NCBI GenBank assembly: GCA_964291675.2
Contig: OZ219866.1
Span: forward strand, 2,976,001 to 3,040,000
Direction: 5' to 3'
Source: Alphaproteobacteria bacterium
GTDB taxonomy: Bacteria > Pseudomonadota > Alphaproteobacteria > MPNO01
Length of the DNA stretch: 64,000 bases
Part shown: piece by piece, positions 5,063-44,850 of the stretch
How positions within the stretch are numbered: position 1 is the first letter of the stretch
Layout: each line of letters begins with the position of its first letter
Notes under the pieces: generated by a model
Told to the model about the DNA's origin: nothing
What the model saw: only the letters and a program-made list of their open reading frames with translations
The model's database searches: none
Program-made: the position numbers and the translations under genes

Positions 5063-5905
5063 ATGATGATCCAGACCGCCCCGCCGGGCGAGCCCCGCTT
5101 CCTGTGCTCGATGCGCGAGCACAACGCGCTCTGCGGGCAGTTCGTGCGCGCCTTCGGCAACGACGCCTTCGAGCGCTGCGAGCCGCATGACGAGATGGTC
5201 TATGTCGTCAGCCACCACGACTACGGCTGGGACGCGTTCGACGGCAACCCGGTGCTCGACGAGCGCTCCGGCCTGCCCTGCGGCATCGGCAACGCGCCGG
5301 TGCCGGGCGGCACCGACACCGGCCGGCGCTCGGCCGAGGTCAACGAGGCGCGCCACCTCTATTGCGGGCTGCTGTCGTCGATGCATTCCTGGGGGCTCTA
5401 TCACGGGCGCTACGGCTACTCGGAGTTCCGGGTGCGGCCGGGCGGGTCGACCTCGATCCCGGTCGGGCCGGCCGACCGCGCCGACGTCGACCGCATGCTG
5501 GACGGCGAGATCGCGCGCCAGGAGCGCATCAGGGAGGCGCTCGCCGCCGACCCGGAGACCGCGCCCTGGGTGGAGGAGGCGCACCTCGTGCAGAACTACA
5601 AGCAGCTCCAGTTCTTCGACACGCTCGCGCTCTATTTCAACCTGCGCCACGAGACCGACCGCGGCGTCGAGACCTTTGTTTGCGTGCCGCGGGACGCCGA
5701 GACCGACGCCGAGGTGACGGTGACGCCGAGGGGCGGCGGCGTCTACGCGCTCGATCCGTTCCCCTTCGCCGGCGACCGGCTGGTAGCGGTGTGCAGCGGG
5801 CGCCATCTCGCCGCCTATGGCGAGGGCGAGGCGCCGGCAGACCTCGCCGCCGCGCTCGCGCTCCTGCCCGCCGAGACCCAGACCTACACCCTCGTGAAGG
5901 GCTGA
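5063..5905 (+). CDS. DUF3891-like protein
   Basis: EHNALCGQFVRAFGN, HHDYGW, GLLSSMH, LQFFDTLALYF, LDPFPF pattern; start chosen after GGAGG RBS. Confidence 0.7.
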   Translation: MMIQTAPPGEPRFLCSMREHNALCGQFVRAFGNDAFERCEPHDEMVYVVSHHDYGWDAFDGNPVLDERSGLPCGIGNAPVPGGTDTGRRSAEVNEARHLYCGLLSSMHSWGLYHGRYGYSEFRVRPGGSTSIPVGPADRADVDRMLDGEIARQERIREALAADPETAPWVEEAHLVQNYKQLQFFDTLALYFNLRHETDRGVETFVCVPRDAETDAEVTVTPRGGGVYALDPFPFAGDRLVAVCSGRHLAAYGEGEAPADLAAALALLPAETQTYTLVKG

Positions 5906-5980
5906 ATGCACGCCGAGGTTGCAGCCCCGCCCGGCCCCGGCTAGGCTCGAACCAGCGCGCGATTGCGGAGACCGGCCGGG

Positions 5981-6424
5981 ATGGCCGCTGCGTTCGATAC
6001 CCTGACCGCCGCCCGCCGCATGGAAGACGCGGGGATGAAGCGCGAACAGGCGGAAGCCGTCGCCGAAGCCGTCCGCTCGGCCGCGGAATCCGACCGCGAA
6101 GAGTTGGCGACCAAGACGGATCTGGCAGGCGTCAAAGCCGACGTGGCGGCCGTCAGGTCGGAGCTCGCCGCGCTGAGGGCGGAGGTCAAGTCGGATCTCG
6201 ACGCGCTGAGGGCGGAGGTCAAGTCGGATCTCGACGCGCTGAGGGCGGAGTTCAAGTCGGAGCTCGACGCGCACAGGACGGAATTCAAGTCCGAACTCGA
6301 GACGGGTCTTGCGGGGCTCAGGGTGGAGCTGGTGGACCGGATCCAATCGACCGAACGGCGCATGTATGCCGCCGTCTTCGGCGTTGGCGGGCTGCTGTTC
6401 GCCGCGCTCAAGCTGGTTCCCTGA
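5981..6424 (+). CDS. DUF1640/CCDC90-like coiled-coil protein with C-terminal TM, copy 1
   Basis: FDTLTAARRMEDAGMKREQAEA..LATKTDL head; 33-bp (11-aa) repeats ALRAEVKSDLD; hydrophobic tail. Confidence 0.8.
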   Translation: MAAAFDTLTAARRMEDAGMKREQAEAVAEAVRSAAESDREELATKTDLAGVKADVAAVRSELAALRAEVKSDLDALRAEVKSDLDALRAEFKSELDAHRTEFKSELETGLAGLRVELVDRIQSTERRMYAAVFGVGGLLFAALKLVP

Positions 6425-6580
6425 CGCCGGAAGCAGGCGATCCCGCCGCCGCGTTCGCGGGCCCGCCGACCGACATTCGGACCCACACACTTGTGAACGT
6501 CCGATCCTCGGATGGCATTGCGGGTGCATCCGGTCACGGCTACGCTTGCCTCAGCGCGCCGCGTAGGGACATGGGTTGGA

Positions 6581-6892
6581 ATGGCCGCCGGTTTCGACAC
6601 CCTGACCGCCGCCCGCCGCATGGAAGAGGCGGGCATGAAGCGCGAGCAGGCGGAAGCCGTCGCCGAAGCCGTCCGCACCGCTGCGGAATCCGGCCGCGAG
6701 GAGCTGGCGACCAAGACTGACGTGGCAGCTGTCAAGACGGACCTGGCGGAACTCAAGGTAGAGCTCAAGGGGGACATCTCCGCGCTCAGGGTGGAGCTCG
6801 TGGACCGGATGCAGTCCGGCGAACGGCGCATGTATGCCGCCGTCTTCGGGGTTGGCGGGTTGCTGTTCGCCGCGCTCAAGCTGGTTCCCTGA
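6581..6892 (+). CDS. DUF1640/CCDC90-like protein, copy 2
   Basis: Close paralogue of copy 1 with a shorter stalk. Confidence 0.8.
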   Translation: MAAGFDTLTAARRMEEAGMKREQAEAVAEAVRTAAESGREELATKTDVAAVKTDLAELKVELKGDISALRVELVDRMQSGERRMYAAVFGVGGLLFAALKLVP

Positions 6893-7009
6893 CGCCGACC
6901 GGTACCCGGACCCACGCAGTTGTGAAGTCATGACCGTGCGACGGCGTTGCCGGTGCATCCGGTCGCGGCTAGGCTCGCCCCATCGTCGCGAGCGCGGAGA
7001 CCGGCCGGG

Positions 7010-7302
7010 ATGGCCGCAGCCTTCGATACCCTGACCGCGGCCCGCCGCATGGAACAGGCGGGGATGAAGCGCGAGCAGGCGGAAGCCGTCGCCGAAGCCG
7101 TTCGCTCGGCTGCCGAGTCCGGCCGCGAAGAGTTGGCGACCAAGATGGACATCGCAAGATGGACATCGCGGCTCTCAAGGTGGACATGGCGGCACTCAAG
7201 GCCGAGCTCCTGGACCGGATGCAATCCGGCGAACGGCGCATGTATGCCGCCGTCTTCGGGGTTGGCGGGCTGCTGTTCGCCGCGCTCAGGCTGGTTCCCT
7301 GA
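7010..7302 (+). pseudogene. DUF1640/CCDC90-like protein, copy 3, frameshifted
   Basis: 14-bp tandem duplication CAAGATGGACATCG (7141-7154/7155-7168) shifts the frame; removing one unit restores the C-terminus ...FAALRLVP*. Confidence 0.85.
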
Positions 7303-7392
7303 CGCCCGCGCGGGGCCGCGCCCGCCGCATGCACGCGCCGCGCCGGTCTGTTACTCTCGCGCGCAACTGCAATCCGAAAGGCCGGTCGCGCG

Positions 7393-8640
7393 ATGAAGGT
7401 GCTCTGGTTCCATCTGATGCCCTACACCGAGCTCCCCGACGACTTCAAGGAGCGCCACCCGGGTGTCTGGGTCGAGATCGACCCGGCGCTGTTCGATCCC
7501 GAACGCGCGCACCTGATGTACAACGACTTCATGGACGAGCTCGAATTCGCCGCCGAGCAGGGGTTCGACGGGATCTGCGTCAACGAGCACCACTCCAACG
7601 GCTACGGGCTGATGCCGTCGCCCAATTTGATCGCCGCCAGCCTGGCGCGGCGCACCGGCGACGCGGCGATCTGCGTGATGGGGAGCTCGGTCGCGCTCTA
7701 CGACCCGCCGATCCGGGTGGCCGAGGAGTTCGCGATGATCGACTGCATATCGGGCGGGCGGCTGATCGCCGGCTTCCCGGTCGGCACGCCGATGGACACC
7801 TGCTACGCCTACAGCCGCAACCCCGGGCTCTTGCGCCCGCGCTACTACGAGGCGATCGACCTGATCACCCGCGCCTGGCGCGAGGAGAAGCCGTTCCCCT
7901 ATAACGGCCGCTTCAACCGGCTGCGCTACGTCAACCCGTGGCCGCGCCCGGTCCAGAAGCCGCGCCCGCCGGTCTGGGTGCCGGGCTCGGGCTCGGTCGA
8001 GACCTGGCGGATGTGCTACGAGAACGACTTCGTCTACGCCTACCTCTCCTACTGGGGCTACAAGGCGGGGCTCGGCGTGATGAAGGGGTTCTGGGAGGAG
8101 ATGAAGGCGATGGGGGCCGAGCCCAACCCCTACCACGCCGGCTTCCTCCAGGCCGTCGGCGTCGCCGAGAGCCGCGCCGAGGCGGTCGACCTCTATGCCG
8201 GGCCGGCGAGCTATTTCTATGACCGCTGCCTCCATCTCGACCCCAAATTCGCCCGCCCGCCGGGCTATGTGTCGGAGGCGACGGTGCGCTCGCGCATCAC
8301 CTCGCAGGTCTCCCGGGCGGCCGACCAGGCGATCGCCGCGCGGCCCTTCCATTCCGAGGACGCCAACGTCCTGGAGCAGGGCCACGTCATCGTCGGCAGC
8401 CCCGACGAGGTCGCCGACCAGCTCCGCGAGGTGGCGGTCAACCTCAATGTCGGCCACCTGATGCTGCTGCTCCATTTCGGCGACATGTCGAAGGACCTGA
8501 CCAGGTACAACACAAGGCTGTTCGCCGAGCGGGTGCTGCCGCAGATCGCCGATTTGTTCGACGACGAATGGGAAGACAAGTGGTGGCCCAGCCCGATGCC
8601 GAGCCAGAGCCGCGCGGTGCCGGAGCCGGTCGCCGTATGA
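7393..8640 (+). CDS. LLM-class (luciferase-like) flavin-dependent oxidoreductase
   Basis: GFDGICVNEHHS, PIRVAEEFAMIDCISGGRLIAG, PRPVQKPRPPVW, VGSPDEV. Confidence 0.92.
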   Translation: MKVLWFHLMPYTELPDDFKERHPGVWVEIDPALFDPERAHLMYNDFMDELEFAAEQGFDGICVNEHHSNGYGLMPSPNLIAASLARRTGDAAICVMGSSVALYDPPIRVAEEFAMIDCISGGRLIAGFPVGTPMDTCYAYSRNPGLLRPRYYEAIDLITRAWREEKPFPYNGRFNRLRYVNPWPRPVQKPRPPVWVPGSGSVETWRMCYENDFVYAYLSYWGYKAGLGVMKGFWEEMKAMGAEPNPYHAGFLQAVGVAESRAEAVDLYAGPASYFYDRCLHLDPKFARPPGYVSEATVRSRITSQVSRAADQAIAARPFHSEDANVLEQGHVIVGSPDEVADQLREVAVNLNVGHLMLLLHFGDMSKDLTRYNTRLFAERVLPQIADLFDDEWEDKWWPSPMPSQSRAVPEPVAV

Positions 8641-9428
8641 CGAGCATCGCCCAACGCTCCGCCGCGGTTTCCGGCGGCGAGCTGCGGGTATGGGAGAAGG
8701 GCGCGGGGCCGGGCGTGTGCTTCTTCGCCGGCGTCGTCGGGCTGCCCCGCTGGCTGCCGGTGCTCGACCTTCTGGCCGGGGCGCATCGCGTCGTCGCCCC
8801 GTCGCTGCCCGGCGCGCCGGGCGGGCATTCGGCGGACCTCCTCGACGAGCATGTCGACTGGCTGCTGGCCGCGCGCGACGCCCACCTTGCGGCGGAGACC
8901 GACGGCGGCGCGCTGATCGGCGCCTCGACCGGCGGCGCGCTCGCCGCCGATGTCGCGGCGGTGTGGCCGGGGGCGGTGGCGAGGCTGGTGCTGATCGCCC
9001 CGTTCGGCGTGTTCGACGAGGCCGAGCCGATCGCCGACATCTTCGCCCAGCGCCCCGCCGACCGTTCGCCGCTGCTCAGCAACCGGCCGGACGAGCTCGA
9101 CGCCTATACCGCCGCCGCCGCCGGCGACGCGGACGAGACGCTCGAATGGGACCTCGCGATGCAGCGCGCCAACAACGCGGCGGCGCGCCTGCTGTGGCCG
9201 CTCGGCGATACCAGGCTGGCGACGCGTCTCGGGCGGATCGCCTGCCCGACGCTGCTGCTCCGGGGCGCCGACGACCGGGTGATGCCGCGCTCCTACGCCG
9301 CGCGCATGGCGGATGCGATCTCCGGCCCCACCACGATCCGCGAGATAGCGGGCGCCGGCCACATGGCCGAGTTCGACCGCCCCGACGCGGTGGCGGCGGC
9401 GATCGCGGAGTTCCTCGCCGCGGCCTGA
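8637..9428 (+). CDS. Alpha/beta-fold hydrolase
   Basis: GASTGG nucleophile elbow, PTLLLRGADD, AGHMAEF; ATGA overlap with the LLM gene. Confidence 0.88.
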   Translation: MTSIAQRSAAVSGGELRVWEKGAGPGVCFFAGVVGLPRWLPVLDLLAGAHRVVAPSLPGAPGGHSADLLDEHVDWLLAARDAHLAAETDGGALIGASTGGALAADVAAVWPGAVARLVLIAPFGVFDEAEPIADIFAQRPADRSPLLSNRPDELDAYTAAAAGDADETLEWDLAMQRANNAAARLLWPLGDTRLATRLGRIACPTLLLRGADDRVMPRSYAARMADAISGPTTIREIAGAGHMAEFDRPDAVAAAIAEFLAAA

Positions 9429-9450: not shown

Positions 9451-10884
9451 TCAGCGCTTGCCGCCGAATCCCGCGCTCAAATCCGCGCGCAGCACGACAC
9501 CGCCCATGCCCTCATGGCCCGGACCGAAGAACGCGCCGGTCACCTCCCCTGCATCGCCGCCGGTCCGGATGAAGCCGTTGCCGCGCACCTCGATCGCGTA
9601 GCCCAGGCGGCCGTCGCGCCATGTCGTCCCGCTCCCCGCCGGTCCCGGCGCCGCGCCGGCGGGCCAGCGCTCCAGCGCGGAAAAATCCAGCGCGCCCGTC
9701 AGCGAGCCCAGATCCACGGCGAGGTCGGCCGCGCCGGCGACGGACTCCGCCCCCGGCGTGAGCCCCGCGAGGCGGCCGGACCAGCTTGCGCGGCCGGAGA
9801 GCGCCGCGTTGTCCCCGAGCGGCGACCCCGGCGCGGGCCCGGCCGCCCAGGGCTGCGCGAGCCCGTTGCGCAGCGCGGCGCCGAACGCCAACTCGCCGCC
9901 CGCGACGTCGATGGCGCCGCGGATATGCATCGAGACGTCCGACCAGGACCCGAGCGCCGCCGCGATACGGTCCGGCGGGGTCCCGGGCGGCAAGTGGCGA
10001 TAGACCGCGAGCAGCGCCTCGCGATCGAGGGGGTGGAGCACGTGCGGGGTCAACGCCTCGCTGCCGCCCGAAACCATCAGCGTTGCCGGGAACCGGTTCG
10101 GGTCCACATGGCCGCGACCGAGCAAATGGATCAGCTCGTGCGCGATCACGCCCAGCCTTTCCAGCCCCTCGGTTTGCGCCGGGTCGATCCAGACCCGGCC
10201 GGCGACGATATCGATCCGCCAGGGAGCTTCCGGGTCTCCCGTGGGCTCGAGCGCGTAGCGCGGCGCCGCGAGCCCGATATCCTCCCCGCCCGGCGGCGCC
10301 GCTCCGACAGGCCAATCCGCCTGCGGCGCGAACGCGACCAGGATTTCTCCCACCGCAGCCTCCATCGCCTCGCTGGGGACGAATTCGCCGCCGAACCGGA
10401 GCTGCCAGTCTTGCGGCAGGGCCGCGTTGATCGCCTGCACCACGCGGACCGTCTCGTCGAGCAGCGCCGGCGGCGTGCCTTCGGCGACGCGAACCGCCGG
10501 CGGCGCCGCCGCGAAGCGAAGGACGAGCCCGCCGGGGATGAACTGGTCGTCCGCGTCGGCCTCCTCGCCCGGGTCCAGATACCCAGCGGCGTCCGCCCGC
10601 AGATAGGCGACCAGCTCGGCCGCGCCGACGCCGTCGGCGATCGGTCCGTGCGAGACGCGGGCCTCGCCGTGACGGGCGACCCGCGGCAGCCCGTCGGCGG
10701 GCGCGGCGACGTCCGCCCCCACATGCACAAGACCGTCGAGCTTCACGGTCGGTGCCTGGCGCGCCTGGCCGGGCGTTTGCAGCGCGACGTTCGAAGGATC
10801 CCCGGCCGGCATCCGGGCGTCTTCGGCGCAGGCGGCCAGCATGGCCGCAACCCCCACGGCCAACCCGTTGCGCAAGAGCTTCAT
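9451..10884 (-). CDS. Lipoprotein with HExxH zinc-peptidase-like domain and C-terminal TbpB-like beta-barrel
   Basis: Signal peptide MKLLRNGLAVGVAAMLAAC (lipobox); IAHELIHLLGRGH; ends with VTGAFFGPGHEGMGGVV..LSAGFGGKR. Confidence 0.7.
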   Translation of the reverse strand: MKLLRNGLAVGVAAMLAACAEDARMPAGDPSNVALQTPGQARQAPTVKLDGLVHVGADVAAPADGLPRVARHGEARVSHGPIADGVGAAELVAYLRADAAGYLDPGEEADADDQFIPGGLVLRFAAAPPAVRVAEGTPPALLDETVRVVQAINAALPQDWQLRFGGEFVPSEAMEAAVGEILVAFAPQADWPVGAAPPGGEDIGLAAPRYALEPTGDPEAPWRIDIVAGRVWIDPAQTEGLERLGVIAHELIHLLGRGHVDPNRFPATLMVSGGSEALTPHVLHPLDREALLAVYRHLPPGTPPDRIAAALGSWSDVSMHIRGAIDVAGGELAFGAALRNGLAQPWAAGPAPGSPLGDNAALSGRASWSGRLAGLTPGAESVAGAADLAVDLGSLTGALDFSALERWPAGAAPGPAGSGTTWRDGRLGYAIEVRGNGFIRTGGDAGEVTGAFFGPGHEGMGGVVLRADLSAGFGGKR

Positions 10885-11219
10885 GGCGTTTCTCCGTCGA
10901 CCCCCGCCGCGCCCGCGGCCGGCACCCCATGGTATCGCCCGGACACGCCCCGCCAATAGAGCCCGAAGGCCGGGGCCGGAAGTGCCGTTTGCCCAAAAAT
11001 CCATGCCGCGGCGGCATCGACCGGGCGAGGGCCGTCCAACCGGCAGCCGCGCCGCGCGCATCGCCGAGGCGATCTCCGGTCCCGCGACGGTCCGGGAGAA
11101 GGAGCACGTCGGCCACATGGCCGGATTCGACCCTGACGATGAGACGGGCGATGCCATCGCGGAGTTCCTGACGGGAGGCGCAAGCCGGAGTTTGGCCTCG
11201 GCGTTCGGCCGGCCCGGTG

Positions 11220-36229: not shown

Positions 36230-36242
36230 CAGCCGCGCCCCG

Positions 36243-36435
36243 TCCCTCGATACGGCCCTTCGGGCCTACTCGGGATGAGGGCGGGGTTGGGGCGGCCGGC
36301 ATCCTTTCTCATCCATTCTCTCCTCATCCTTCGGGGGCTACTCAGGATGAGGGTGGGGTTGGGGCGGCCGGCATCCTTTCTCATCCATTCTCTCCTCATC
36401 CTGAGTAGCCCGCCGCAGGCGGGCGTATCGAAGGA
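36243..36435. repeat. REP family 2 pair with internal 72-bp-period tandem duplication
   Basis: 36266-36330 is repeated at 36338-36402. Confidence 0.85.
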
Positions 36436-36647
36436 CCGACCGCGTCGTTGCCGATCTCGACCATGCCGTTGGCCCGCAGATGCTCGTCCCAGTCGCGGCG
36501 CGAGCGGTAGCGGCGGCCGTCGGCGGGGCTGGCGATGCCGTGCTCGAAGGGGGCGTCGCGGTTGACGAGCTGCGGCCCGGCGGCCGGGCGGGGCGGCGCC
36601 AGCGGGACCCAGCGGGCCTGCGCCTTGCTCCAGGCGTAGCGGGTCAT
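36396..36647 (-). CDS. Small conserved phage protein after portal
   Basis: SPADGRRYRSRRDWDEHLRANGMVEIGND; stop codon supplied by the REP. Confidence 0.7.
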   Translation of the reverse strand: MTRYAWSKAQARWVPLAPPRPAAGPQLVNRDAPFEHGIASPADGRRYRSRRDWDEHLRANGMVEIGNDAVGPSIRPPAAGYSG

Positions 36648-38425
36648 CGCGGCCTGCCCTCGGCCGGGCCCGGCGGCGGCGCGGCGGCGGCCGCCTCGGC
36701 CTGGCGGATCAGCGCGTCCGAGGTGCGCCCGATCACCTCCTCCAGCCGGCGGCCGGGCTTGAAGCTGCGCGCGGCGGTGCGGAACATTTCGAGGAACATC
36801 GGCGCAGATTGCGGCGCCGCCCCGATCAAGGGCGCGATGCCGGTAAAGAAGCCGGTCGCGGCGGTCAGGAACTCGACCGCGTTGCGCCGCTCGGCCTCGG
36901 CGTCGGGCTGGACCGTCGATTCGGTCTCGATGTCGATGCGGAAGCCGCGCAGCCGCTCGTCGCGCAGCAGCGCAGCGACCGCCGGCGGCACCGGCCGCCC
37001 GGTCATCCGGGCCAGCGTCTCGGGGCGGAAATGCTCGGCGATCACCTCCGCCTTGAGGCGCAGCGCGTCGCGCACGAAGCGCTGCATCGGGCGCTGGCGG
37101 GGCTGCATCCGCATGGTGCCGAAGGAGCCCTTGAGGCGCTGCGCGGTGGCGGTCTCGGAGGCCTGGGTGGAGCCGCGCACGATGTCCGACAGGCCGGTGA
37201 TCTCGAAGATCTCGGCCTTGAGCTGCGCCATGTGGCCGTTGAGCGAGACGATCACCTGGGCGATGCGCTCGATCGGCAGCCACTCGATGGCCGCCGCCAG
37301 CCCGCCCTTGTCGCGGAACTGGTCCCAGTCCTTGACCGGGATCATCTCGTTCTCGCCGGCCTCGGTGAGCAGCCGCTCGATCTCGCCCAGCACCCCGGCA
37401 TAGACGCCGCGCGCCCTGAGCGCGGCGATCAGATGCCGCTTGCGGTCGGCGAGCTCGTCGAGCTCCAGCGCCTGGTCCTGGTAGAGGGTGAATTCCGGGA
37501 TCGGCACCCGCGAGTCCGACGTCCTGACCGCATAGATCGGCTCCGGCACCGGGAAGAAGCCGGCGAGCCCGAGCGGGTCGGGGGTCTCCTCGACGACGCG
37601 GTCGAAGCCGTCGGCGATGACGATGCGCCTGCGCCCCGGCTTGTCCCAGATCTCCCACAGGACGGCGCGCCTCGCGCCTTCCGGCGCGACCTCCGGCGCG
37701 GCGCCCGCGCGGTCGCGCCCGTCATAGGCGCGCACCGCGCCCTCCAGCGGGATGTCGCGGCCGATCGCGCCGAAGCGCTCGACCAGCTCGCCGCGCGCGA
37801 GCGCGTGGCGGAAGGCGATCCAGCCCACCTCGTCCCAGCAGCGCGCGGGCTGCTCGCGGTAGTCCTTCCAGAACACGTGGCGGCAGCGGACCCGCTCGTC
37901 GGCCACCTCCTCGACCCAGGCGTCCTCGCCGTCGAACCCGTCGGGCTCGACCGGCCGGCCGTCGAGCAGGAAGACCGGCGCGCCATCGGGGCCTTCGGCG
38001 CGCTCCAGGGCGCGCCTCGCGATCACCGGCTCGTAGACGATGCGCGCGACGCCGCGCCCGGGCAGCAGCATGTCGTCGCGCACCGCCTCCATCGCCCGGT
38101 CGAAGCCGTCGTCGTCGAGCAGGTAGGAGAGCGCGCGCTCCAGCACCAGCGCGGCCTCGCGCCCGACCGGGTCGTCGTCGAGATAGCGCCGGCGCACGTC
38201 CGGCGCCGGGGTCTGCGAGTAGATCACCGGCTTCAGGATCTCGGTATTGGCCCACAGGATGTTGACCTGGCGGCGGGCGGACTGGCGCTTCTCGGCGCGG
38301 TAGCGCTCGACCACCTTGTCGGCGCGCTGCATCCAGTCGCGCCCGGCCCGCCCCGCCCGGTCGAGCTCGGCCCGCCAGTGGCGCACCGTCCCGTCCGGCC
38401 CGGGAGTTTCGGTCTCGGTCTTCAT
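36644..38425 (-). CDS. Portal protein
   Basis: NILWANTE.LKP..Y..TP.PDVRRR, LLPGRG, LWEIWDK, GFFPVPEP, IFEITGLSDIVRG, ETATAQ, FRIDIETEST. Confidence 0.88.
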   Translation of the reverse strand: MKTETETPGPDGTVRHWRAELDRAGRAGRDWMQRADKVVERYRAEKRQSARRQVNILWANTEILKPVIYSQTPAPDVRRRYLDDDPVGREAALVLERALSYLLDDDGFDRAMEAVRDDMLLPGRGVARIVYEPVIARRALERAEGPDGAPVFLLDGRPVEPDGFDGEDAWVEEVADERVRCRHVFWKDYREQPARCWDEVGWIAFRHALARGELVERFGAIGRDIPLEGAVRAYDGRDRAGAAPEVAPEGARRAVLWEIWDKPGRRRIVIADGFDRVVEETPDPLGLAGFFPVPEPIYAVRTSDSRVPIPEFTLYQDQALELDELADRKRHLIAALRARGVYAGVLGEIERLLTEAGENEMIPVKDWDQFRDKGGLAAAIEWLPIERIAQVIVSLNGHMAQLKAEIFEITGLSDIVRGSTQASETATAQRLKGSFGTMRMQPRQRPMQRFVRDALRLKAEVIAEHFRPETLARMTGRPVPPAVAALLRDERLRGFRIDIETESTVQPDAEAERRNAVEFLTAATGFFTGIAPLIGAAPQSAPMFLEMFRTAARSFKPGRRLEEVIGRTSDALIRQAEAAAAAPPPGPAEGRPR

Positions 38426-38479
38426 GGCTTTCCTTTCGGCTCGCATGGCGGTCCTTCGATACGTGCCCTGCCGCCCCCA

Positions 38480-38590
38480 CCCGTCATGCCCGGACTTGAT
38501 CCGGGCACCCACTGGCGCCGCCGCCTCTCCCTGCAACCCCCTTGCGCGCGGCGGCCGCATGGGTGCCCGGATCAAGTCCGGGCATGACGG
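38480..38590. repeat. REP family 1 pair
   Basis: CGTCATGCCCGGACTTGATCCGGGCACCCA ... TGGGTGCCCGGATCAAGTCCGGGCATGACG. Confidence 0.88.
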
Positions 38591-38616
38591 AGGGAGCGGG
38601 GCGGCGCGCCCCGCGG

Positions 38617-39933
38617 TCAGATCAGCCCGTGCCCGGCGCGGCGGCGCTCGGCGAGGTGGCGGCGCCATTGGCCCTCGAAGCTGTCCGCGCGCGGCGCCGG
38701 CGGGGCGAAGCGGTCGCCGATCCCCATCGCCAGGTAGCGGAACGCGTCCGCGCCGTGGCTGAAGCGGTCGTGCACCGGCCGGTCGCCGAGCCCGCCGGTG
38801 GCGGGGTCGATTTCCGCCCGGTAGCGGCGCAGGCACTCGATGCCGGCCTCGGCGCGCTCGGCGTCGAACCAGCAGCGCGGCAGGATCGCGCGCACCGCGT
38901 TGATGCCGTCCTCGATGCGGTGGCGCGGCACGATGGCGAACCGGATGCCGAGCCGCCGCGCCTGCTCCTCGCGCGTCCGCCCGGTGCCGAGCTCGCGGGC
39001 CAGCGCGTCGGGCGGCGCGTAGTGGCGGCCATAGACATAGCCGCGCTCGGCGGCGCGTTCCTGCAGCAGCCCGGCATAGTGGTCGAGCCCCTCCCCCTCC
39101 GCCTCGTAGTAGTCGAGCAGGTGGATCTCGGGCCCGGCGAGCTGGGCGAACCAGATCGCCGTCGGGTCGCCGATGCCGAGATCCCAGGCGGTGTCGACCG
39201 GCAGCGCCGGGTCGTGCGGCACCGCGCGGATACGCCCCGAGCGCCGGGCGTCGGCCATCGCCCGGCCGTAATAGGCGCCCTTGACCGCCGCCTCGAAGGA
39301 GCACTCGAACTCCTGGGCGTACTCCTCGCGCGTCATGTCGCGGCGCGCGGCGGCGAGCTCCTGCGCCGGCAGCACGCCACTCGCCGATGCCGGGAACAGC
39401 GCCGCGTACCAGGTCGCATCGGCGCGGGCCGCGCGGTACATGCGCCAGAACGCGTCATGCCCCTTGGGCGTGCCGATGAAGATCGCCCAGCCCTCGCGGT
39501 CGGCGAGCGCCGGGCGGATCACCTCGCCCCACATGTCGGGGTTCATCTGCGCGTACTCGTCGAGCACCGCGCCGTCGAGATAGATGCCGCGCAGCGAATC
39601 CGGGTTGTCGGCGCCGTAGAGCTGGATGCGCGCGCCGTTGGGGAGGTCGACCCGGAGCTCGGTCTCGCTCACCTTGCGGCCCGGCACCGCGGACGTGTAG
39701 TGCTTGAGATAGTCCCACGCGACCCGCTTGGCCTGGCGGTAATAGGGCGCGATATAGGCAAACCGCGGGCGCGGGCGCCGCGCGCGGATGGCGTGGTCGA
39801 TCAGCTCGTTGACGCAGAGCACCGTCTTGCCGAAGCGGCGGTGGCAGACCAGCACGCTGAACCGGGCGAGGCTGCGGTGGATGTCGGCCTGCAGCGGGCG
39901 CGACCGGTAGCCGGTGCTAATTTTCTCGGTCAC
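38617..39933 (-). CDS. terL: Terminase large subunit
   Basis: CHRRFGKT (Walker A), LRGIYLDGAVLDEYA (Walker B), IGTPKG, AWDLGIGD, SHGADAFRY. Confidence 0.95.
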   Translation of the reverse strand: MTEKISTGYRSRPLQADIHRSLARFSVLVCHRRFGKTVLCVNELIDHAIRARRPRPRFAYIAPYYRQAKRVAWDYLKHYTSAVPGRKVSETELRVDLPNGARIQLYGADNPDSLRGIYLDGAVLDEYAQMNPDMWGEVIRPALADREGWAIFIGTPKGHDAFWRMYRAARADATWYAALFPASASGVLPAQELAAARRDMTREEYAQEFECSFEAAVKGAYYGRAMADARRSGRIRAVPHDPALPVDTAWDLGIGDPTAIWFAQLAGPEIHLLDYYEAEGEGLDHYAGLLQERAAERGYVYGRHYAPPDALARELGTGRTREEQARRLGIRFAIVPRHRIEDGINAVRAILPRCWFDAERAEAGIECLRRYRAEIDPATGGLGDRPVHDRFSHGADAFRYLAMGIGDRFAPPAPRADSFEGQWRRHLAERRRAGHGLI

Positions 39934-40246
39934 GTTCGATCCCCGTATCGACGATCTCGGCCAGCCGGTCGGCGGCGATGCCCCCGTCCCCGCCCTGGCC
40001 CAGGATCAGCCGGCCCAGCAGGCCGGCCATGGTGGCGTTGCGCTCGGCGAGCGCGAATTGCGAGCGCCGGATGCGCACCCGCCCGCACAGCGCGCCGTCG
40101 GCCCAGGCGCGCCGAAGCGCCGGGTCGGCGAGCGCGCGGGCGAACGCATCCGCCGGCACGCCGAGCCAGGCGGCCGCCTCGGCCTCGGTGCAGCCGATCG
40201 CCGCCAGCTCGGCGAGCGCGTCGGCGTCGATGCTCGAACCCGTCAA
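39917..40246 (-). CDS. Terminase small subunit-like protein
   Basis: HTH-like LAAIGCTEAEAAAWLGV, RIRRSQFALA..NATM..LLGRLILGQ; TTG start after GAGGA; overlaps terL. Confidence 0.7.
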   Translation of the reverse strand: MTGSSIDADALAELAAIGCTEAEAAAWLGVPADAFARALADPALRRAWADGALCGRVRIRRSQFALAERNATMAGLLGRLILGQGGDGGIAADRLAEIVDTGIERDREN

Positions 40247-40280
40247 GATCGCGTCCTCGTTCGGTTGTCGGGATGTCGGG

Positions 40281-40425
40281 CCACGAAAAAGGGCGCCGGT
40301 CTCTCCGGCGCCCCATTTCGCGACTGTGGCAAATCTACCCCAAAACGCGTCCCATGTCAAGCGAAAAATACGTTATAGGGAAATTTTTTCGGAACCCCTT
40401 GGAATCCCGGGGGTTTCTTGCCGGT
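40281..40425 (-). promoter_or_regulatory. Promoter + intrinsic terminator unit R1
   Basis: -35 TTGACA (40360-40355), 17 bp, -10 TAGATT (40337-40332), then GGGCGCCGG-AGAGA-CCGGCGCCC-TTTTT. Confidence 0.88.
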
Positions 40426-40469
40426 GCCAATTCGGGCGGCGGAGCGGGCGGTTGTCCCTCGATACGCCC

Positions 40470-40756
40470 CGTCATGCCCGGACTCGTTGCACCGCTGCCC
40501 GGTTCAGCCTTCGATGCGGGCCGAACCCGGCCCTCTTCGCCCCGCCCCTCGACGCCCGGATCGAGTCCGGACATGACGGGAGGCGGAGTGATGGCGATGG
40601 GGCGGGCCGCGCCCGGCTCTCCCTGCTCCTCCTCCGCCACCACCCCGTCATGGCCGGACTCGATCCGGCCATCCACACGGCCTCTCCGCCCGCATGACGG
40701 TCCGACGGGAGGGTGGCAGCGCTCATGGATGCCCGGATCGAGTCCGGGCATGACGG
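40470..40756. repeat. REP family 1 cluster between R1 and R2
   Basis: Two CGTC-type pairs. Confidence 0.82.
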
Positions 40757-40784
40757 GGGAGGAGGCCGGTTGCCCCCCGTCTCC

Positions 40785-40928
40785 GCCACGAAAAAGGGCG
40801 CCGGTCTCTCCGGCGCCCCATTTCGCGACTGTGGCAAATCTACCCCAAAACGCGTCCCGTGTCAAGAAAAAATACGTTAAAGGGAAAATTTTTGCCAAAC
40901 CCCCTGGAATCCCGGGGGTTTCTTGCCG
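40785..40928 (-). promoter_or_regulatory. Promoter + terminator unit R2
   Basis: TTGACA 40865-40860, 17 bp, TAGATT 40842-40837, same hairpin and T tract. Confidence 0.88.
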
Positions 40929-41012
40929 CCTCCGAAGCGCCACCGGACCGACGCCGGAGCAGCGAACGGCGATTACCCGGGAGGCGTCCGGAAGCGGTGG
41001 CGGAACCGTGAT

Positions 41013-41663
41013 CTACGAAAACAGGCGTTCTAGTTCTTCGAGCACCTGCAAGTGTCGTTTCGTCGTCAATGGCGCTGAACAGAAATAGCGTTCAGCCTCC
41101 ACGGACGTCCCCTCGCGACGTTCAATGATGAATTTCGGGATTGCCTCGGATTTTGATGCGAATTCAATTGTGAGCGCGCTGAACGCTGCTGCACTCACGT
41201 CCCGGTGTTCGTTCACGCCGGATAAAATGACATTTGCAATCTTGTCGTACTTGGCGAGCATATTCGCTGCCGGTTTCTCGAATTCGACAACGACCTCGCT
41301 CGAGTAGAGCGACTTCTTATGGATCCGCCTGCATCCGTAATGCTGGACCAGCCAGTCTATCAGGTCCGCGAAAAATGCTTCCGCATGCCCTGTCTCGTAT
41401 GCTCGAACGACTACTCCGTCATTGTGGATAGACAAGCGGTGGATCGTGGCTTCTCCCAACTCTGTCTGGAAGAACCCCAACTCGTACACAAGCCCGTTTC
41501 TTTCCAGTTCGGTGTGGGACGACAGCCTGGGCAAGGTGCCGAAATTGTATCGTTGGCCGATGGCAATGAGAATTTGGCGTTCATTTAGCCCGTCCATGGG
41601 GGTGAACGACTCAAGAGGGAAAAGCGATACCAAGGTTCCGGACGAGAAAGCTATGATTTTCAC
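41013..41663 (-). CDS. Hypothetical protein (cargo, lower GC)
   Basis: 216-aa globular-looking ORF, GTGA overlap with the upstream HTH gene. Confidence 0.7.
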   Translation of the reverse strand: MKIIAFSSGTLVSLFPLESFTPMDGLNERQILIAIGQRYNFGTLPRLSSHTELERNGLVYELGFFQTELGEATIHRLSIHNDGVVVRAYETGHAEAFFADLIDWLVQHYGCRRIHKKSLYSSEVVVEFEKPAANMLAKYDKIANVILSGVNEHRDVSAAAFSALTIEFASKSEAIPKFIIERREGTSVEAERYFCSAPLTTKRHLQVLEELERLFS

Positions 41664-42166
41664 GGAGCTGACCTTGCGATACTCGGCAACCTTGCCGCAT
41701 CGGCCTGCGACGGTTTAGGCGGTATTTCCGCCAACGCACTGTTGGGCCGAATCCGCCGATCCCTCACTCCTTCTTCGTGCTTCACCGCTCTTGAGCGCTG
41801 CGCGGGGGCGAGGGATCGGACCAGATCCTCAGATCGGTAATTCCTCGCGGCGCGCTGCAAGTACGGCTCGGATCGAGGCCGCAACTCCTCGCGACAGATA
41901 CCGACCAGCAGCTCGCTGACGGTATCCAGCGTCCAGTTGCCCGGCGATCCGAGCAGCCTGGTGACGCGAGCCGGCTCGAGCCCGAGGCGCCGCGCGAGCT
42001 TTGCCTTGGTCAACCCGTCCCGTTCGGCCGCCTCGTGGAACCGCCGCAGAACGTAGTCGTAGAAGCTGTTCCTCACCCGCTCGTTGAGATAGCCGAGCGC
42101 GTAGTCCGAGAGCGGCTCGTCGCCCGCGATCTCAGATTTCACTGGAATTTGTCGAAACGTAGTCAC
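41660..42166 (-). CDS. XRE-family HTH protein (antitoxin-like)
   Basis: GLTKAKLARRLGLEPARVTRLLGSPGNWTLDTVSELL. Confidence 0.8.
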   Translation of the reverse strand: MTTFRQIPVKSEIAGDEPLSDYALGYLNERVRNSFYDYVLRRFHEAAERDGLTKAKLARRLGLEPARVTRLLGSPGNWTLDTVSELLVGICREELRPRSEPYLQRAARNYRSEDLVRSLAPAQRSRAVKHEEGVRDRRIRPNSALAEIPPKPSQADAARLPSIARSAP

Positions 42167-42674
42167 GGCAGCTTCCTCCTGTCAGCGGCACCGCGCCGGG
42201 AAGGGCGGCATTCCAGCGCTCGTTCGTCTCGATGAGGGCCAGCTCGTACTCCAGCGAATCCCGCTTGCCGAGCGGCCTCCGGCCGCCGAACCGAACCGAC
42301 CTGGGCTCCCACGAGAGGGCAACGAACGTGTCGGCGCAGGGAAACCTTCCAAACACGCGCAAGCCGGGGTTCGGGTCGCGGCTCCTGATTTCCCAGGTTC
42401 CGTCCGCGGGCGGATCCATGAGCGCCAGGAATGCGCTTCCGTGCTCGAACGGCGTCATGCTCAGCGTCACGTGCTCGCCTTTGACAAACGATTCCAGGTC
42501 TCCCTGAAGCCGGCCGACCCGCCGCCCCCAAGCCTCGACCCGCTCGGAAATGTCATCGGCGAGCCGAGGATGGAGAAGCACGGAACGGACCGCCTCGTCA
42601 CTGTCGAACTCCGGCACGAATGCGCGAAGGCGACCCGTTACGATCGCAGCCTCGATACTCTCTGCTATTGACAT
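42132..42674 (-). CDS. RelE/Gp49-like toxin candidate
   Basis: GTWEIRS..PGLRVFGRF..DTFVAL; upstream of HTH gene. Confidence 0.6.
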   Translation of the reverse strand: MSIAESIEAAIVTGRLRAFVPEFDSDEAVRSVLLHPRLADDISERVEAWGRRVGRLQGDLESFVKGEHVTLSMTPFEHGSAFLALMDPPADGTWEIRSRDPNPGLRVFGRFPCADTFVALSWEPRSVRFGGRRPLGKRDSLEYELALIETNERWNAALPGAVPLTGGSCRDYVSTNSSEI

Positions 42675-42784
42675 TTAAGTCAACTGGATCGCGCTTGGCC
42701 TGGACCGCCGAACAAGGTAGCACGATGGATGAGCGGACGCCGAAGCCCGCCTCGTCCGCCCGGGCCCCCCCGTTCCCCCGCCAG

Positions 42785-42928
42785 CAAAAAGGGCGCCGGT
42801 CCCTCCGGCGCCCCATTTGTCGACTGTGACAAACCTACCCCAAAACGCGTCCCATGTCAAGCGAAAAATGCGTTAAAGGGAAATTTTTTGCGTAACCCCC
42901 TGGAATTCCGGGGGTTTCTTGCCGGTGC
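42785..42928 (-). promoter_or_regulatory. Promoter + terminator unit R3
   Basis: TTGACA 42860-42855, 17 bp, TAGGTT 42837-42832, hairpin GGGCGCCGG-AGGGA-CCGGCGCCC-TTTTT. Confidence 0.86.
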
Positions 42929-43058
42929 CGACTCGGGCTGCGGGGCGGGCGACTGTCCCTCGATACGCCCCCATCGGCATTTCGACCAAGCGGAGCGAGC
43001 CCCGGCACTGACAAATCCGGCGACAGGGCAGGAAGATATCCACAGATCGAACGGCAAG

Positions 43059-43304
43059 CTAGCCAAACAGCTTGATGAGCGTGATTGCGAGCCCGATCCC
43101 GATAACGGAGGCGGCAACGACGCCGCCGAGCACCCATGCCTTGGTCGCCATGGTGTTTTCGATACCCCTGATCCGTTCGTCAATCCGGGCTAGCTGGATT
43201 TCCAATGCCCGCAAGCGAGCGTCGATGCCATCTCCGTTCGACCCGCCGGCATGCACCAAGGATGCCGATGGAGTCGCCGTGGGATGTGGACGGACCGACG
43301 CCAT
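43059..43304 (-). CDS. Small coiled-coil + C-terminal TM protein (cargo)
   Basis: IDARLRALE..LARIDERIRGIE..MATKAW then TM; TGATG coupling. Confidence 0.7.
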   Translation of the reverse strand: MASVRPHPTATPSASLVHAGGSNGDGIDARLRALEIQLARIDERIRGIENTMATKAWVLGGVVAASVIGIGLAITLIKLFG

Positions 43305-43570
43305 CACGCCCTGACCTTGGAGAGCCATTCCCAAAGGTCGTTTCGATTGAATCCGAAATAGGCAGAGATCTCGAGAACGATACCGAGACGACTGTCGGCG
43401 TCCGTGGCAACCCCGACGGTCCTGGCCACGTCCGATGTCAGGACGATCCCTTCGGGTGCGACGAATGCCACCCTCTCGTCCAGAATGAAGTGCCTGCCGG
43501 GCCAGTTCTGCTTTATCGCTTCCCATGCGCCGGCGTCCGGCTGATTGAGATAGACGGCGAAGGTACTCAT
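43304..43570 (-). CDS. Small hypothetical protein (cargo)
   Basis: 88 aa MSTFAVYL..YFGFNRNDLWEWL; alpha/beta pattern. Confidence 0.7.
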   Translation of the reverse strand: MSTFAVYLNQPDAGAWEAIKQNWPGRHFILDERVAFVAPEGIVLTSDVARTVGVATDADSRLGIVLEISAYFGFNRNDLWEWLSKVRA

Positions 43571-43710
43571 CCGGCGACCCTTTCCCGTCGGCGCGTAAAC
43601 CCTAGATAGGGGCCGTTTCGCGGTCAACAACCCTGGCTGGCACCGGAGGTCGAAGCCGCCTCGATGTGTACGGTGCGCGGTGCGCGCCTTCGTCTCCGCT
43701 CCCCGCCCGG

Positions 43711-43851
43711 CAAAAAGGGCGCCGGTCTCTCCGGCGCCCCATTTGTCGACTGTGACAAATCTACCCCAAAACGCGTCCCATGTCAAGCAAAAAATGCGTT
43801 AAAGGGAAATTTTTTGCGGAACCCCCTGGAATCCCGGGCGTTTCTTGCCGG
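43711..43851 (-). promoter_or_regulatory. Promoter + terminator unit R4
   Basis: TTGACA 43786-43781, 17 bp, TAGATT 43763-43758, same hairpin. Confidence 0.88.
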
Positions 43852-43924
43852 CTGCGATTGGGGACGTTCCGTCGCTATCCAGGGTGAGGGCTCTATCGAG
43901 CGGCGGCCCGATCGAGGAGGGGGC

Positions 43925-44395
43925 CTACGCGCTCGTCCGGACTTGGGGGCGAGGCGGGTCCGGGAGGGCGATGGATACCGACCCCGTCATCCCGTTGTAG
44001 AGCATCGTCACATGGCGCAGGAGCGCGCGGCCGATGAGTGCGCCGTGCGGCTGCCCGCCCGCATGGAGGTGCACGCCCGCGAACCTGCCGGAGACGGCCA
44101 GGTCCAGGATGGGGATGAATATCTGGGCCAGATGGACATTGACCTCTCCGGCCCCGTGCACCCCGGATACTTGCACACGATCGATGGCCGGCAAGCCGAC
44201 CGCCGCCGCGATGGAAGAGTCTATGCAGCTTTCCCCTGCCCCCGTATCGACCAGAGCACGGTGCTCGGCCTGCGGCAGGTTCGGGTTCCCGCCGGCACGG
44301 TAGTCGGGATCGAAGCCGATCCGCACCCGGAGCGTGGGGCCGAACCTGACCAGGGCATAGGGTTGCCCTGCGAACCCGCACTCAGCTTGCGGCAT
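43925..44395 (-). CDS. Retropepsin-like (clan AA) aspartyl protease (cargo)
   Basis: ALVDTGA catalytic motif, ALIGRALL. Confidence 0.85.
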   Translation of the reverse strand: MPQAECGFAGQPYALVRFGPTLRVRIGFDPDYRAGGNPNLPQAEHRALVDTGAGESCIDSSIAAAVGLPAIDRVQVSGVHGAGEVNVHLAQIFIPILDLAVSGRFAGVHLHAGGQPHGALIGRALLRHVTMLYNGMTGSVSIALPDPPRPQVRTSA

Positions 44396-44651
44396 CCACC
44401 GCAACCGGGTTGTAGAGCGCCGAGGCGGGTAGCGTGATCGGCGGAGCGCCGATCTCCCTGATCAAGTACGGCCCTGCCCCGAACCGCTCGACCGCCTGCG
44501 CGGCGGCGTCCTCGAACGTGTCGTAGAGGCCCGCCAGCTCCCCGCCATGCACGATCGCCCACTTGCCCAGGTGATCCGTCTCGAGCGCGTTGCGCATGCC
44601 TTCATAGGCAGCGATCTCCCTGGTCAGCGCAGGTGCCTCCGCATCCGCCAT
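44382..44651 (-). CDS. DUF5678-like small protein (cargo, partner of the protease)
   Basis: EIAAYE..L..DHLGKWAIVHGGELAGLYDTFEDA..A..RFG.GPYLIREIG. Confidence 0.72.
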   Translation of the reverse strand: MADAEAPALTREIAAYEGMRNALETDHLGKWAIVHGGELAGLYDTFEDAAAQAVERFGAGPYLIREIGAPPITLPASALYNPVAVDAAS

Positions 44652-44763
44652 ACGAGCCCTCCTTCCGGGACTGCGGGGAAGACCGCAACCCCTTGGCACG
44701 GGAAAACAATAGGATATCGCGGGGCACAAGCATATCCCGCCGTGAAGCCGACCGGGCACCCGC

Positions 44764-44850
44764 CCACGAAAAAAGGCGCCGGTCCCTCCGGCGCCCCATT
44801 TCTCGACTATGAAAAATATAGTCGAAAACGCGTCCCGTGTCAAGCAAAAA
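44764..44850 (-). promoter_or_regulatory. Promoter + terminator unit R5 (short, abuts regulator stop codon)
   Basis: TTGACA 44843-44838, 17 bp, TATATT 44820-44815, hairpin GGCGCCGG-AGGGA-CCGGCGCC-TTTTTT. Confidence 0.86.

Follow-up and report, generated by a model that had tools for sequence, protein, structure and literature searches.

How genes come to lie between long duplications of their target is a question that has stood since 2000, and Nobusato et al. 2000 is reportedly the earlier reference for such insertions. The insertion with long target duplication is described for restriction-modification (RM) genes (Furuta, Abe and Kobayashi 2010, PMC2853133). In the sections of that paper drawn on here, the insert is shorter than 20 kb, the direct repeats are variable, unique and longer than 30 bp, the empty site holds one copy and no mobile-element gene is present. 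The repeats often span a start or stop codon, the species are mostly naturally competent, and the presence of R and M genes together is the authors' search filter and stands outside the definition of the scar. In an E. coli assay of homology-facilitated illegitimate recombination (HFIR), 56 of 60 clones carried duplications, ascribed to recircularisation followed by a single crossover (PMC3240628).

The window analysed here is a stretch of 64,000 nucleotides from contig OZ219866.1 of an alphaproteobacterium; the host organism is uncultured. A sequence-only reading of the window had described six loci at which accessory genes are flanked by duplicates of the adjacent host gene end. Sequence comparison within the window locates all six flanking repeats where they had been placed; a gene end is copied at only four of the loci, as the 19-bp repeat is intergenic and so are all five promoter copies. 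The repeat is direct, unique and longer than 30 bp at five of the six (72, 120, 45, 52 and 90+ bp), the exception being the 19-bp one, and the cargo has a median length of 1.4 kb, i.e., well within inserts of less than 20 kb. The insertions are like those in the sections of PMC2853133 drawn on here in insert size, unique repeats, one-copy empty sites, lack of a mobile-element gene and repeats that span gene boundaries. They are unlike them in cargo, which is mostly toxin-antitoxin pairs, coiled-coil genes and genes of no assigned function instead of RM genes, and in that the genus has tens of sites per genome, repeats of up to 980 bp that include whole genes, stacking, refreshing and one foreign target allele. 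Eleven congeners are available with empty and filled alleles. No R plus M gene pair is found within the window cargos; one locus outside the window has a cargo with an N6/N4 methylase and an ORF without assignment. The repeats are scars of integrase-free gene gain, of the kind known as insertion with long target duplication. This type of scar is already known, and what is new is the evidence on mechanism.

A genome-wide count of gene-end copies within non-coding DNA, no more than 10 kb from the gene, gives 34 direct-outward cases versus 7 direct-inward, 3 inverted-outward and 4 inverted-inward (p 2.5e-5 and 1e-7), the 34 being uncurated and including some paralogue or integrase-fragment cases and a few that involve integrase or IS genes. 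The set is not a product of chance. An unbiased set of low-copy pairs (at least 88% identity and at least 35 bp) has 38 direct versus 3 inverted pairs. The duplicate copies are 35–980 bp long. Their description as usually diverged is accurate for old cases only, as young repeats are 96–99% identical. Recombinases and transposases are absent, in agreement with the reading, from 16 cargo ORFs at 11 loci and from the window cargos, and no integrase adjoining an att repeat with a conserved att core was found at the loci examined. The cargo ends show no common terminal motif by eye. Cargo GC is 0.54–0.66 in 14 of 17 cases versus 0.694 for the genome, and most cargos are unique.

In nine of ten chosen young 3' pairs the repeat ends 2–19 nt past the stop codon, at no more than 20% of L (combined p 6e-5, or 0.005 under a stricter null), two young pairs with a repeat ending before the stop being excluded from this statistic. 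Repeat ends just past the stop are expected if the donor cargo starts where homology stops. Among differences that arose in displaced copies, 15 of 31 are synonymous versus 27–32% expected under pure decay (p 0.009–0.04), and 13 of 29 when the pair having an intact duplicate gene is left out (p 0.03–0.10). A mismatch gradient along the repeats (51, 22, 17 and 52 by quartile) is not used; one pair dominates it and alignment edges inflate it.

The DUF3891 locus has the following features:
5063..5905, plus strand: DUF3891 host gene (Pfam PF13030), its 3' end being the duplicated target
5981..7303, plus strand: CCDC90-like coiled-coil cargo (PF07798), three tandem genes (5981-6424, 6581-6892 and 7010-7303, the last frameshifted)
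6433..6504, plus strand: decayed DUF3891 3'-end copy 1 (versus 5833-5905, 53/72 matches; 0/300 shuffles as good)
6894..6927, plus strand: decayed DUF3891 3'-end copy 2 (24/34 matches; 1/300 shuffles as good)

A third candidate copy, before the LLM gene, is non-significant (173/300 shuffles as good). Ten of the 11 congeners have one to three CCDC90-like genes at this site, in one case degenerate. The empty site is seen in G003, where the DUF3891 gene adjoins the LLM gene at 7 bp and is present as a single copy. In G001 the DUF3891 copy diverges at its edges and is the same as that genome's own allele over a core of 129 bp. The inner spacers of the array are alike across the genome under study (G000), G009 and G010. 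The array, like the promoter copies described below, looks like the amplification of a pre-existing unit. It resembles the S. aureus lpl clusters, made up of 3'-ORF/spacer/5'-ORF units, in growing and shrinking as a spacer-plus-gene unit, and is unlike what is described there in that the spacer is derived from the end of the neighbouring host gene (PMC2568036, as far as the portion drawn on extends). No source locus was found for the CCDC90-like cargo at C1:674 kb.

At the hydrolase locus the order is as follows:
8637..9428, plus strand: alpha/beta hydrolase host gene (PF12697)
9451..10884, minus strand: cargo, a 477-aa gene without a Pfam match, labelled by reading as having a lipoprotein-like N-terminus
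11050..11218, plus strand: displaced hydrolase 3' end and old downstream flank (77% to the resident, 75% to the G010 end and flank)
~11207-11591: vapC remnant after the displaced hydrolase end

The repeat itself (9296-9415 versus 11050-11169) is 120 bp with 77% identity. The 477-aa cargo is in the same position in G009 and behind phd-vapC in G010, and is unmatched in the regions compared of the other nine congeners. One codon state of the displaced end is common to 7/7 clade-B genomes and 0/5 others; a foreign origin was not adopted on this basis, as tree placement did not resolve.

The permease locus is a composite of two lineages:
14408..14856, unstranded: native permease 5' end, native promoter and decayed alpha-type phd (14650-14856), grouping with G009 and G010; the permease gene is at 13651-14424, minus strand
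14866..14910, plus strand: vapC duplicate of 45 bp (vapC nt 131-175), 44/45 to 15494-15538, ending at a non-homologous join
14910..15360, unstranded: foreign segment with a second permease 5' end (23 bp), diverged promoter and beta-type phd (15079-15360)
15364..15759, plus strand: mosaic vapC, 5' third beta-type and the rest of the native lineage

The permease 5'-end repeat is only 23 bp (14408-14430 versus 14910-14932, 21/23) and is followed by the diverged second promoter and phd; the 45-bp vapC duplicate (98%) is part of the same event. The second promoter is 62–72% identical to all 10 rows compared and lies on a long branch, and the beta-type phd groups with clade-B alleles (support 98/99). 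Compared with G010, the mosaic vapC has 68–70% identity at nt 1-132 and 92–96% at nt 133-396. The switch point lies between about nt 105 and 190, an interval that encloses the 45-bp duplicate. At the other junction, vapC nt 175 is joined to the truncated permease start with 2 nt shared. These alignments support the addition, next to the native allele, of DNA from a diverged relative that carries the start of the permease gene, its promoter, the antitoxin and the 5' third of the toxin. A deletion common to the second promoter and three clade-B genomes was rejected as a donor marker, since short repeats bound it and these sequences do not group in the tree. The donor is therefore called unsampled. 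The 45-bp duplicate has two G000-specific states although the mosaic vapC is also in G009, which calls for either a second event or a conversion.

At this site donor and recipient diverge sufficiently to put the crossover inside the duplicate, an indication that kin DNA was captured by homology on one side. The reading had proposed homologous recombination on one side and non-homologous joining on the other; permease/phd-vapC shows this, and elsewhere the repeats do not decide it. This one site suggests that the integrase-free scars are left by kin DNA whose recombination with the chromosome uses homology at just one of its sides. One-sided homology is also a feature of the E. coli events, with duplications of 109–950 bp in the 14 sequenced there versus 35–980 bp here. 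The E. coli substrate is a laboratory plasmid linearised after conjugation, with natural insertions not proposed in the sections drawn on, whereas the present events are reconstructed from genomes alone (PMC3240628).

The abrB-vapC cargo (19849-20435) lies within exact 19-bp intergenic repeats:
19735..20484, plus strand: cargo and repeats (repeats at 19735-19753 and 20466-20484)

When the window was simulated 200 times with an order-3 Markov model, an exact 19-mer repeat no more than 1 kb apart arose in 1 simulation. The cargo is 93% identical to a G007 copy at an unrelated locus without the 19-bp repeat.

The two remaining loci lie within a phage-like cluster:
25121..46641, unstranded: domesticated podovirus-like head/tail cluster, a GTA candidate, hosting the scaffold and promoter loci
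34527..34578, minus strand: working scaffold RBS/start (gene 33563-34537)
34709..35539, minus strand: DUF4258 + HTH cargo pair, toxin-antitoxin-like
35605..35700, minus strand: displaced scaffold 5' end, keeping the longer N-terminus of congeners that is lost in the working copy
40280..40470, minus strand: promoter and hairpin copy adjoining the small terminase
40785..40935, minus strand: promoter and hairpin copy 2
42770..42971, minus strand: promoter and hairpin copy 3
43696..43857, minus strand: promoter and hairpin copy 4
44759..44853, minus strand: promoter and hairpin copy adjoining a 195-aa putative activator

The scaffold start repeat (34527-34578 versus 35649-35700) matches at 50/52 positions. 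Its DUF4258 + HTH cargo is found, whole or in part, at the same site in G006, G008, G002 and G007 (77–82%); the scaffold-start duplicate was not found in G006 or G008, and G001 has the empty site with a single copy. The five promoter copies are non-coding and 84–93% alike across a 90-bp core, with four predicted sigma-70-like sites and four predicted terminator-like hairpins. The activator-side and terminase-side copies are the pair present in five congeners, and the extra copies cluster by genome.

One-copy empty sites are found at three loci outside the window in 10/11, 11/11 and 5/5 congeners. They show duplication without loss, i.e., insertion and not deletion. The proposal that the old gene end is pushed outward holds, as it is this end that forms the outer copy, with the native junction to the next gene retained. 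Growth of arrays by stacking is seen in G010, where the youngest unit adjoins the intact gene (after the gene come a new cargo, a 508-bp copy of 99% identity, an older cargo and a 39-bp copy of 87%); the CCDC90-like array and promoter copies look amplified instead. The stacked orphan arrays of V. cholerae and, reportedly, the displacement of rhs C-terminal ends are related systems. In the T6SS immunity arrays of that species a new module likewise lies beside a conserved anchor with old parts displaced outward, and an orphan antitoxin remains at the permease locus here; the anchor there, in the portion of the source drawn on, is one dedicated toxin locus, unlike the many unrelated housekeeping genes, 3' and 5' ends and promoters used here (PMC5361080).

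Displaced copies had been expected to be closer to alleles of other strains. Most young ones cluster with the genome's own allele and not with that of another lineage, an outcome that the reading had named as grounds for refutation, the G010 young copy having 2 differences from the resident allele in 495 coding bp; near-clonal donors or later conversion explain this equally well. The match implies that donors were mostly near-clonal or that copies have been refreshed. G000 and G009 have identical junctions, yet their copies are homogenised within each species. Because copies are refreshed, repeat identity is a poor clock. No conspecific strains were found in metagenomes, the best matches of the 80 loci kept having 62–74% identity. 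G000 has 34 direct-outward cases in 4.8 Mb, G010 has 3 in 0.8 Mb and 50 of the 80 short metagenome loci have 1 in 0.63 Mb, and the single outgroup G040, from another family, has 4 per 0.4 Mb that are uninspected and look like paralogue or phage repeats. An exceptional scar rate in the genus is not supported by these values.

The best explanation as a whole, with about an even chance of being correct, is that kin DNA arrives in linear form, closes into a circle and integrates through one crossover, after which the repeats drive stacking. Cargo would already lie just past the stop or before the start of the gene in some strain or sister lineage. A linear piece, which may come from the resident GTA candidate or from transformation, would enter; a portion of the host gene would form one of its ends, and the other would lie in or beyond the cargo. 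Homology would then exist on one side only, and the ends would be joined into a circle, a step shown only in E. coli. The circle would integrate by a single homologous crossover within the stretch held in common, a step that the permease locus supports, and this would duplicate the stretch (35–980 bp) around the cargo. As congener comparison shows, the inner copy completes the gene and the outer copy keeps the old junction and decays; the survivors would be only those events in which the repeat spans a gene boundary. The repeats would later recombine mutually and with incoming kin DNA, giving the observed pattern of unit amplification (CCDC90-like array, promoter copies), new cargo stacked beside the intact gene and refreshed old copies. 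The origin of the gene-cargo adjacency is thereby shifted to an earlier event. Stretches of 35–47 bp are short for RecA, and no Ku gene was found in this genome (93.7% complete); a ComEC-family gene is present and counts in favour.

Strict HFIR, in which the linear donor crosses over in the host gene and is joined illegitimately to the chromosome by its far end, at a point still inside that gene, is unlikely. It gives the same map as the circle and agrees with the mosaic at the permease locus, with the tracking of stop codons and with the excess of synonymous differences. The ComEC-family gene counts in its favour too, and this route has been put forward for the Vibrio arrays of stacked orphan immunity genes (PMC5361080, portion drawn on). 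However, HFIR in this sense, as invoked in the sequence-only reading, generally deletes recipient DNA, contrary to the congener empty sites. In the sections of PMC3240628 drawn on, its products usually carry a deletion of similar size and 3–10 bp of microhomology, and duplications, from circles, are about 10 times commoner. Only 2 nt are shared at the permease join; the DUF3891 join has a 7-nt match, and no second copy of that CCDC90-like gene end was found elsewhere in the genome for comparison. The inner copy would be wholly donor and the outer wholly recipient, so chimeric versus pure copies are a sharp discriminator; at every locus here the products of the two routes are indistinguishable. 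Rather unlikely is break repair or replication template switching without target homology, in which a fork copies past the end of the gene, jumps to a foreign template and comes back at a position behind the one it left, gene ends being only what survives selection. Near-identity of young copies to the resident allele and the unique, GC-poor cargos agree with it, and double-strand breakage is invoked for the RM cases (PMC2853133, sections drawn on). It predicts repeat ends spread from 0 to L past the stop, unlike the clustering observed, and leaves the foreign same-locus allele at the permease site and the synonymous excess unexplained.

Local tandem duplication followed by deletion and decay accounts for the CCDC90-like array, the genome-clustered extra promoter copies and the change in gene order seen at the hydrolase locus and at the YeeE-like one, where genes are swapped, and explains resident-like young copies without any donor. 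It provides no source for unique low-GC cargo absent from empty sites, needs 2 or 3 more deletions per locus, and sits poorly with the YeeE-like gene cargo, which in G000 is 80% identical to the G009 and G010 copies while those are 90% identical to each other. It is quite improbable for the set and, as a general cause, is excluded by the empty-site comparisons. A transposase or integrase acting in trans, with many att sites or the long variable target duplications of IS1634-type behaviour, is very improbable. IS and repeat elements abound in the genome and the 19-bp repeat is TSD-like; against this stand the motif-free cargo ends and recombinase-free cargo ORFs, and abrB-vapC and DUF433 cargos that G007 and G011 carry at other sites, where no matching repeats flank them. 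G008 has what we take to be an IS1634-like gene, and no direct repeat of at least 34 bits was found around this element.

The GTA candidate is a plausible source of donor DNA for the insertions. A wider proposal, which is unlikely, takes the conserved podovirus-like cluster for a GTA not described before. Its fragments, with random ends, would close into circles and integrate through a single crossover, and long-target-duplication insertion would be a main integrase-free route of gene gain. If it were true, the genus would gain, stack and swap toxin-antitoxin and defence genes at any gene end, the GTA cluster included. The cluster is syntenic in G001, G004, G005, G006 and G008 and partly in G010; terminase and portal are also present in G002, G003, G007 and G011, and were not found in the fragmented G009 assembly. 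No integrase or replication gene is found among its scanned proteins. From its gene content and conservation, this phage structural cluster is vertically kept under purifying selection and fits what is expected of a GTA. The dN/dS values are 0.12–0.67 with dS of 0.21–0.57, compared with 0.11–0.34 and 0.21–0.43 for core genes.

All six of the repeats that a sequence-only reading of the window described are present. Their description as duplicates of gene ends holds at four loci (DUF3891, hydrolase, permease, where the copy is 23 bp only, and scaffold). At the other two the repeats are intergenic, i.e., the 19-bp repeat around abrB-vapC and five promoter-plus-hairpin copies. Local self-alignment of the whole host genome (G000), proposed as a check, reveals 34 host genes with a direct outward copy of their end in non-coding DNA, an uncurated set, as well as 7 direct-inward, 3 inverted-outward and 4 inverted-inward cases. 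A stricter earlier filter gave 26, 4, 1 and 3, respectively, and an unbiased list of low-copy pairs (at least 88% identity, at least 35 bp) has 38 direct versus 3 inverted. Repeat length is 35 to 980 bp with a median of 116 (25 3' cases), and the longest encloses an entire clpP-like gene. The cargo, i.e., the accessory genes between the host gene end and its displaced copy, has a median size of 1.4 kb; GC content is 0.54–0.66 in 14 of the 17 that were curated. Families in 16 cargo ORFs from 11 loci are toxin-antitoxin, methylase, AAA, peptidase, MOSC and unknown.

The phenomenon is real, general and already known in kind. The scar matches the 'insertion with long target duplication' (PMC2853133), where repeats may likewise span starts or stops and there is a bias to competent species. 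In a literature search that covered few subscription papers, no match was found for target duplication combined with transformation anchors, circularisation, orphan antitoxins or GTAs. What is of value here is that the permease mosaic and the statistics render the mechanism testable.

The host genome is 4.8 Mb with a GC content of 69%; our own codon-bias gene caller gives 4,236 genes (84% coding). Comparison was with 11 genomes of the same genus (G001–G011), and a three-gene tree, midpoint-rooted, has the topology G003,(G001,((G010,(G000,G009)),clade B)). The names tig, clpP, YeeE, motB, pyruvate kinase, MFS and lrp are presumptive, read off protein sequences by eye, unlike the Pfam labels, which come from Pfam searches.

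The old gene end was said to be displaced outward, and this is borne out: it is the outer copy that still joins the next gene as in the native arrangement, which makes it the old end. In G003, DUF3891 adjoins the LLM gene in an empty site with a single copy. Outside the window, the site at C2:1.43 Mb is empty in 10 of 11 congeners, that at C2:1.385 Mb is single-copy in 11 of 11, and C1:0.824 Mb is a single-copy empty site in all five congeners searched. The displaced scaffold start retains a longer N-terminus that is missing from the working copy, and in old insertions common to G000, G009 and G010 the displaced copies have decayed as a separate lineage.

Stacking, also claimed, is plain in G010. 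There the YeeE-like gene is followed by a new 3.7-kb cargo and then by a 508-bp copy (99%); an older cargo and a 39-bp copy (87%) come after it, before the next gene. Stacking by homology-facilitated illegitimate recombination (HFIR) is proposed for Vibrio immunity arrays in PMC5361080. The YeeE-like-gene cargo family (loci L085, 2071–2880, L201 and L202) lies upstream of the gene in G000, with a 5'-end duplicate, and downstream in G009 and G010, with 3'-end duplicates; identity between the G000 copy and the other two is only 80%. The motB-like gene end is a recurrent target. In G003 a displaced copy of the 3' end is found past two core genes (locus L200, 2148–2220 and 4380–4451), and G000 and G009 hold different cargos at this gene end. 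At the clpP-like locus (C2:3366143–3372695, L380) gene duplication arises as a by-product: a 980-bp duplicate of 99% identity leaves two intact clpP-like genes flanking a 4.6-kb low-GC cargo. A second hairpin family is seen at insertion sites and often begins right after the working copy's stop (G010 YeeE-like gene, clpP pair).

The displaced copies mostly carry the genome's own allele. The 508-bp pair of G010 has 2 differences in 495 coding sites, and extra promoter copies group by genome (97% G004, 92% G006, 86% G008). At C2:1.43 Mb both junctions are common to G000 and G009, yet in each genome both copies hold that genome's own states. The displaced DUF3891 end of G001 has the junction found across the genus; its first 21 nt contain 5 differences, and the next 129 nt are identical to the gene of G001 itself. 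On its face this is the clustering with the resident allele that had been named as counting against the kin-DNA reading and for simple local duplication, yet the shared-junction cases show that copies get refreshed, so that identity can neither date them nor exclude a near-clonal donor.

The repeat terminates 2–19 nt past a stop codon in 9 of 10 young 3' pairs. The ten comprise the G010 pair and nine from G000 with at least 88% identity; for the clpP pair the distance was taken from the clpP stop, and two young pairs ending before the stop (C2:2599057 and a 46-bp pair in G010) were left out. Random target duplication would spread the repeat end over the whole repeat length, and against it the combined p is 6e-5, or 0.005 if only half of the range is detectable. 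When changes in ten pairs are polarised with up to five congener loci, displaced copies have 15 synonymous and 16 non-synonymous changes and working copies 12 and 7, with 6 unresolved. Pure decay predicts 27–32% synonymous (p 0.009–0.04; 0.03–0.10 without the clpP pair). The synonymous excess lends modest support to two alleles that were both functional at one time.

The permease locus, like the repeat ends and the synonymous excess, speaks for incoming DNA from kin. There are two phd-vapC allele classes in the genus (phd tree, 98/99 support), and G000 and G009 have both, the native alpha antitoxin by the permease and then the beta antitoxin. In G000 a second permease start and promoter precede the beta unit; this promoter has 62–72% identity to all 10 rows compared and a long branch, and the first permease promoter groups with G009 and G010. 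The vapC toxin is a mosaic relative to G010, with 68–70% identity at nt 1–132 and 92–96% thereafter. The change of allele falls somewhere from about nt 105 to nt 190, a range that takes in the 45-bp duplicate (nt 131–175), whose right end joins a truncated foreign permease start with 2 shared bases. Recombination that is homologous on one side and illegitimate on the other, as had been suggested for all loci, thus fits the permease locus, where one junction is homologous and the other is not. Two G000-specific states in the 45-bp piece count against incoming kin DNA; the piece is either younger than the G000/G009 split or converted.

Incoming DNA with one-sided homology has two possible fates. 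In the first, trimmed, recircularised kin DNA would enter by a single crossover. Circle integration of this type is the favoured route, at even odds, because the duplication size range in E. coli matches. In PMC3240628, an E. coli assay built for HFIR yielded duplications instead in 56 of 60 clones (109–950 bp in 14 sequenced clones); these were ascribed to trimmed recircularised DNA and a single crossover, and were about 10 times commoner than HFIR. Strict HFIR is the second fate, and no locus tells it apart from circle integration, but according to the same paper its products as a rule lose about as much DNA as they gain, and it is considered unlikely. Homology-free break repair is likewise an unlikely origin. 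Tandem duplication and loss is quite improbable. A recombinase acting in trans is very improbable, and none is encoded in the 16 cargo ORFs from 11 loci. The genome has a ComEC-family gene; Ku was not found.

Once it lies between repeats, a unit can multiply through unequal crossing-over, and this is the best account of the CCDC90-like array and the promoter copies. The array has 1–3 copies in 10 of 11 congeners, with inner spacers alike across species. Two more tandem arrays of small membrane-anchored coiled-coil genes are at window positions 56063–56921 and 57549–57988, and similar arrays are at C1:149 kb, C2:840 kb and C2:3213 kb. The repeats at 40280–44853 consist of a sigma-70-like promoter and, within about 20 nt, a terminator-like hairpin, an arrangement we liken to the lambda late promoter that needs antitermination. 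The copies set this cassette upstream of cargo genes.

The window also contains a head/tail cluster:

25121–46641, podovirus-like cluster (SU10-type capsid, adaptor; repressor, putative activator), genus-wide, under purifying selection, without integrase

The cluster (25–47 kb) shows synteny in five congeners, with part deleted in G010, and is matched in four more; it was not found in the fragmented assembly of G009. Its genes have dS near that of core genes and dN/dS of 0.12–0.67, and no integrase or replication family matches the cluster proteins scanned. On these sequence properties it is a fair candidate for an undescribed GTA. Nothing links this candidate to the insertions, and a surplus of such scars in this genus over other groups is not demonstrated.

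Other elements are found in the window. REP/MITE-like hairpin repeats are abundant (11594–11935, 15974–16241, 20508–20733, 27364–27650 and 61974–62487). Two IS110-family transposase genes (20813–21844 and 22924–24174) have between them a hairpin element bracketed by a 92-bp direct repeat (22154–22245 and 22484–22575). The abrB-vapC pair (19786–20456) is 93% identical between clades to that of G007 (locus L360), where its surroundings differ; core genes are 88% identical, which points to recent transfer.
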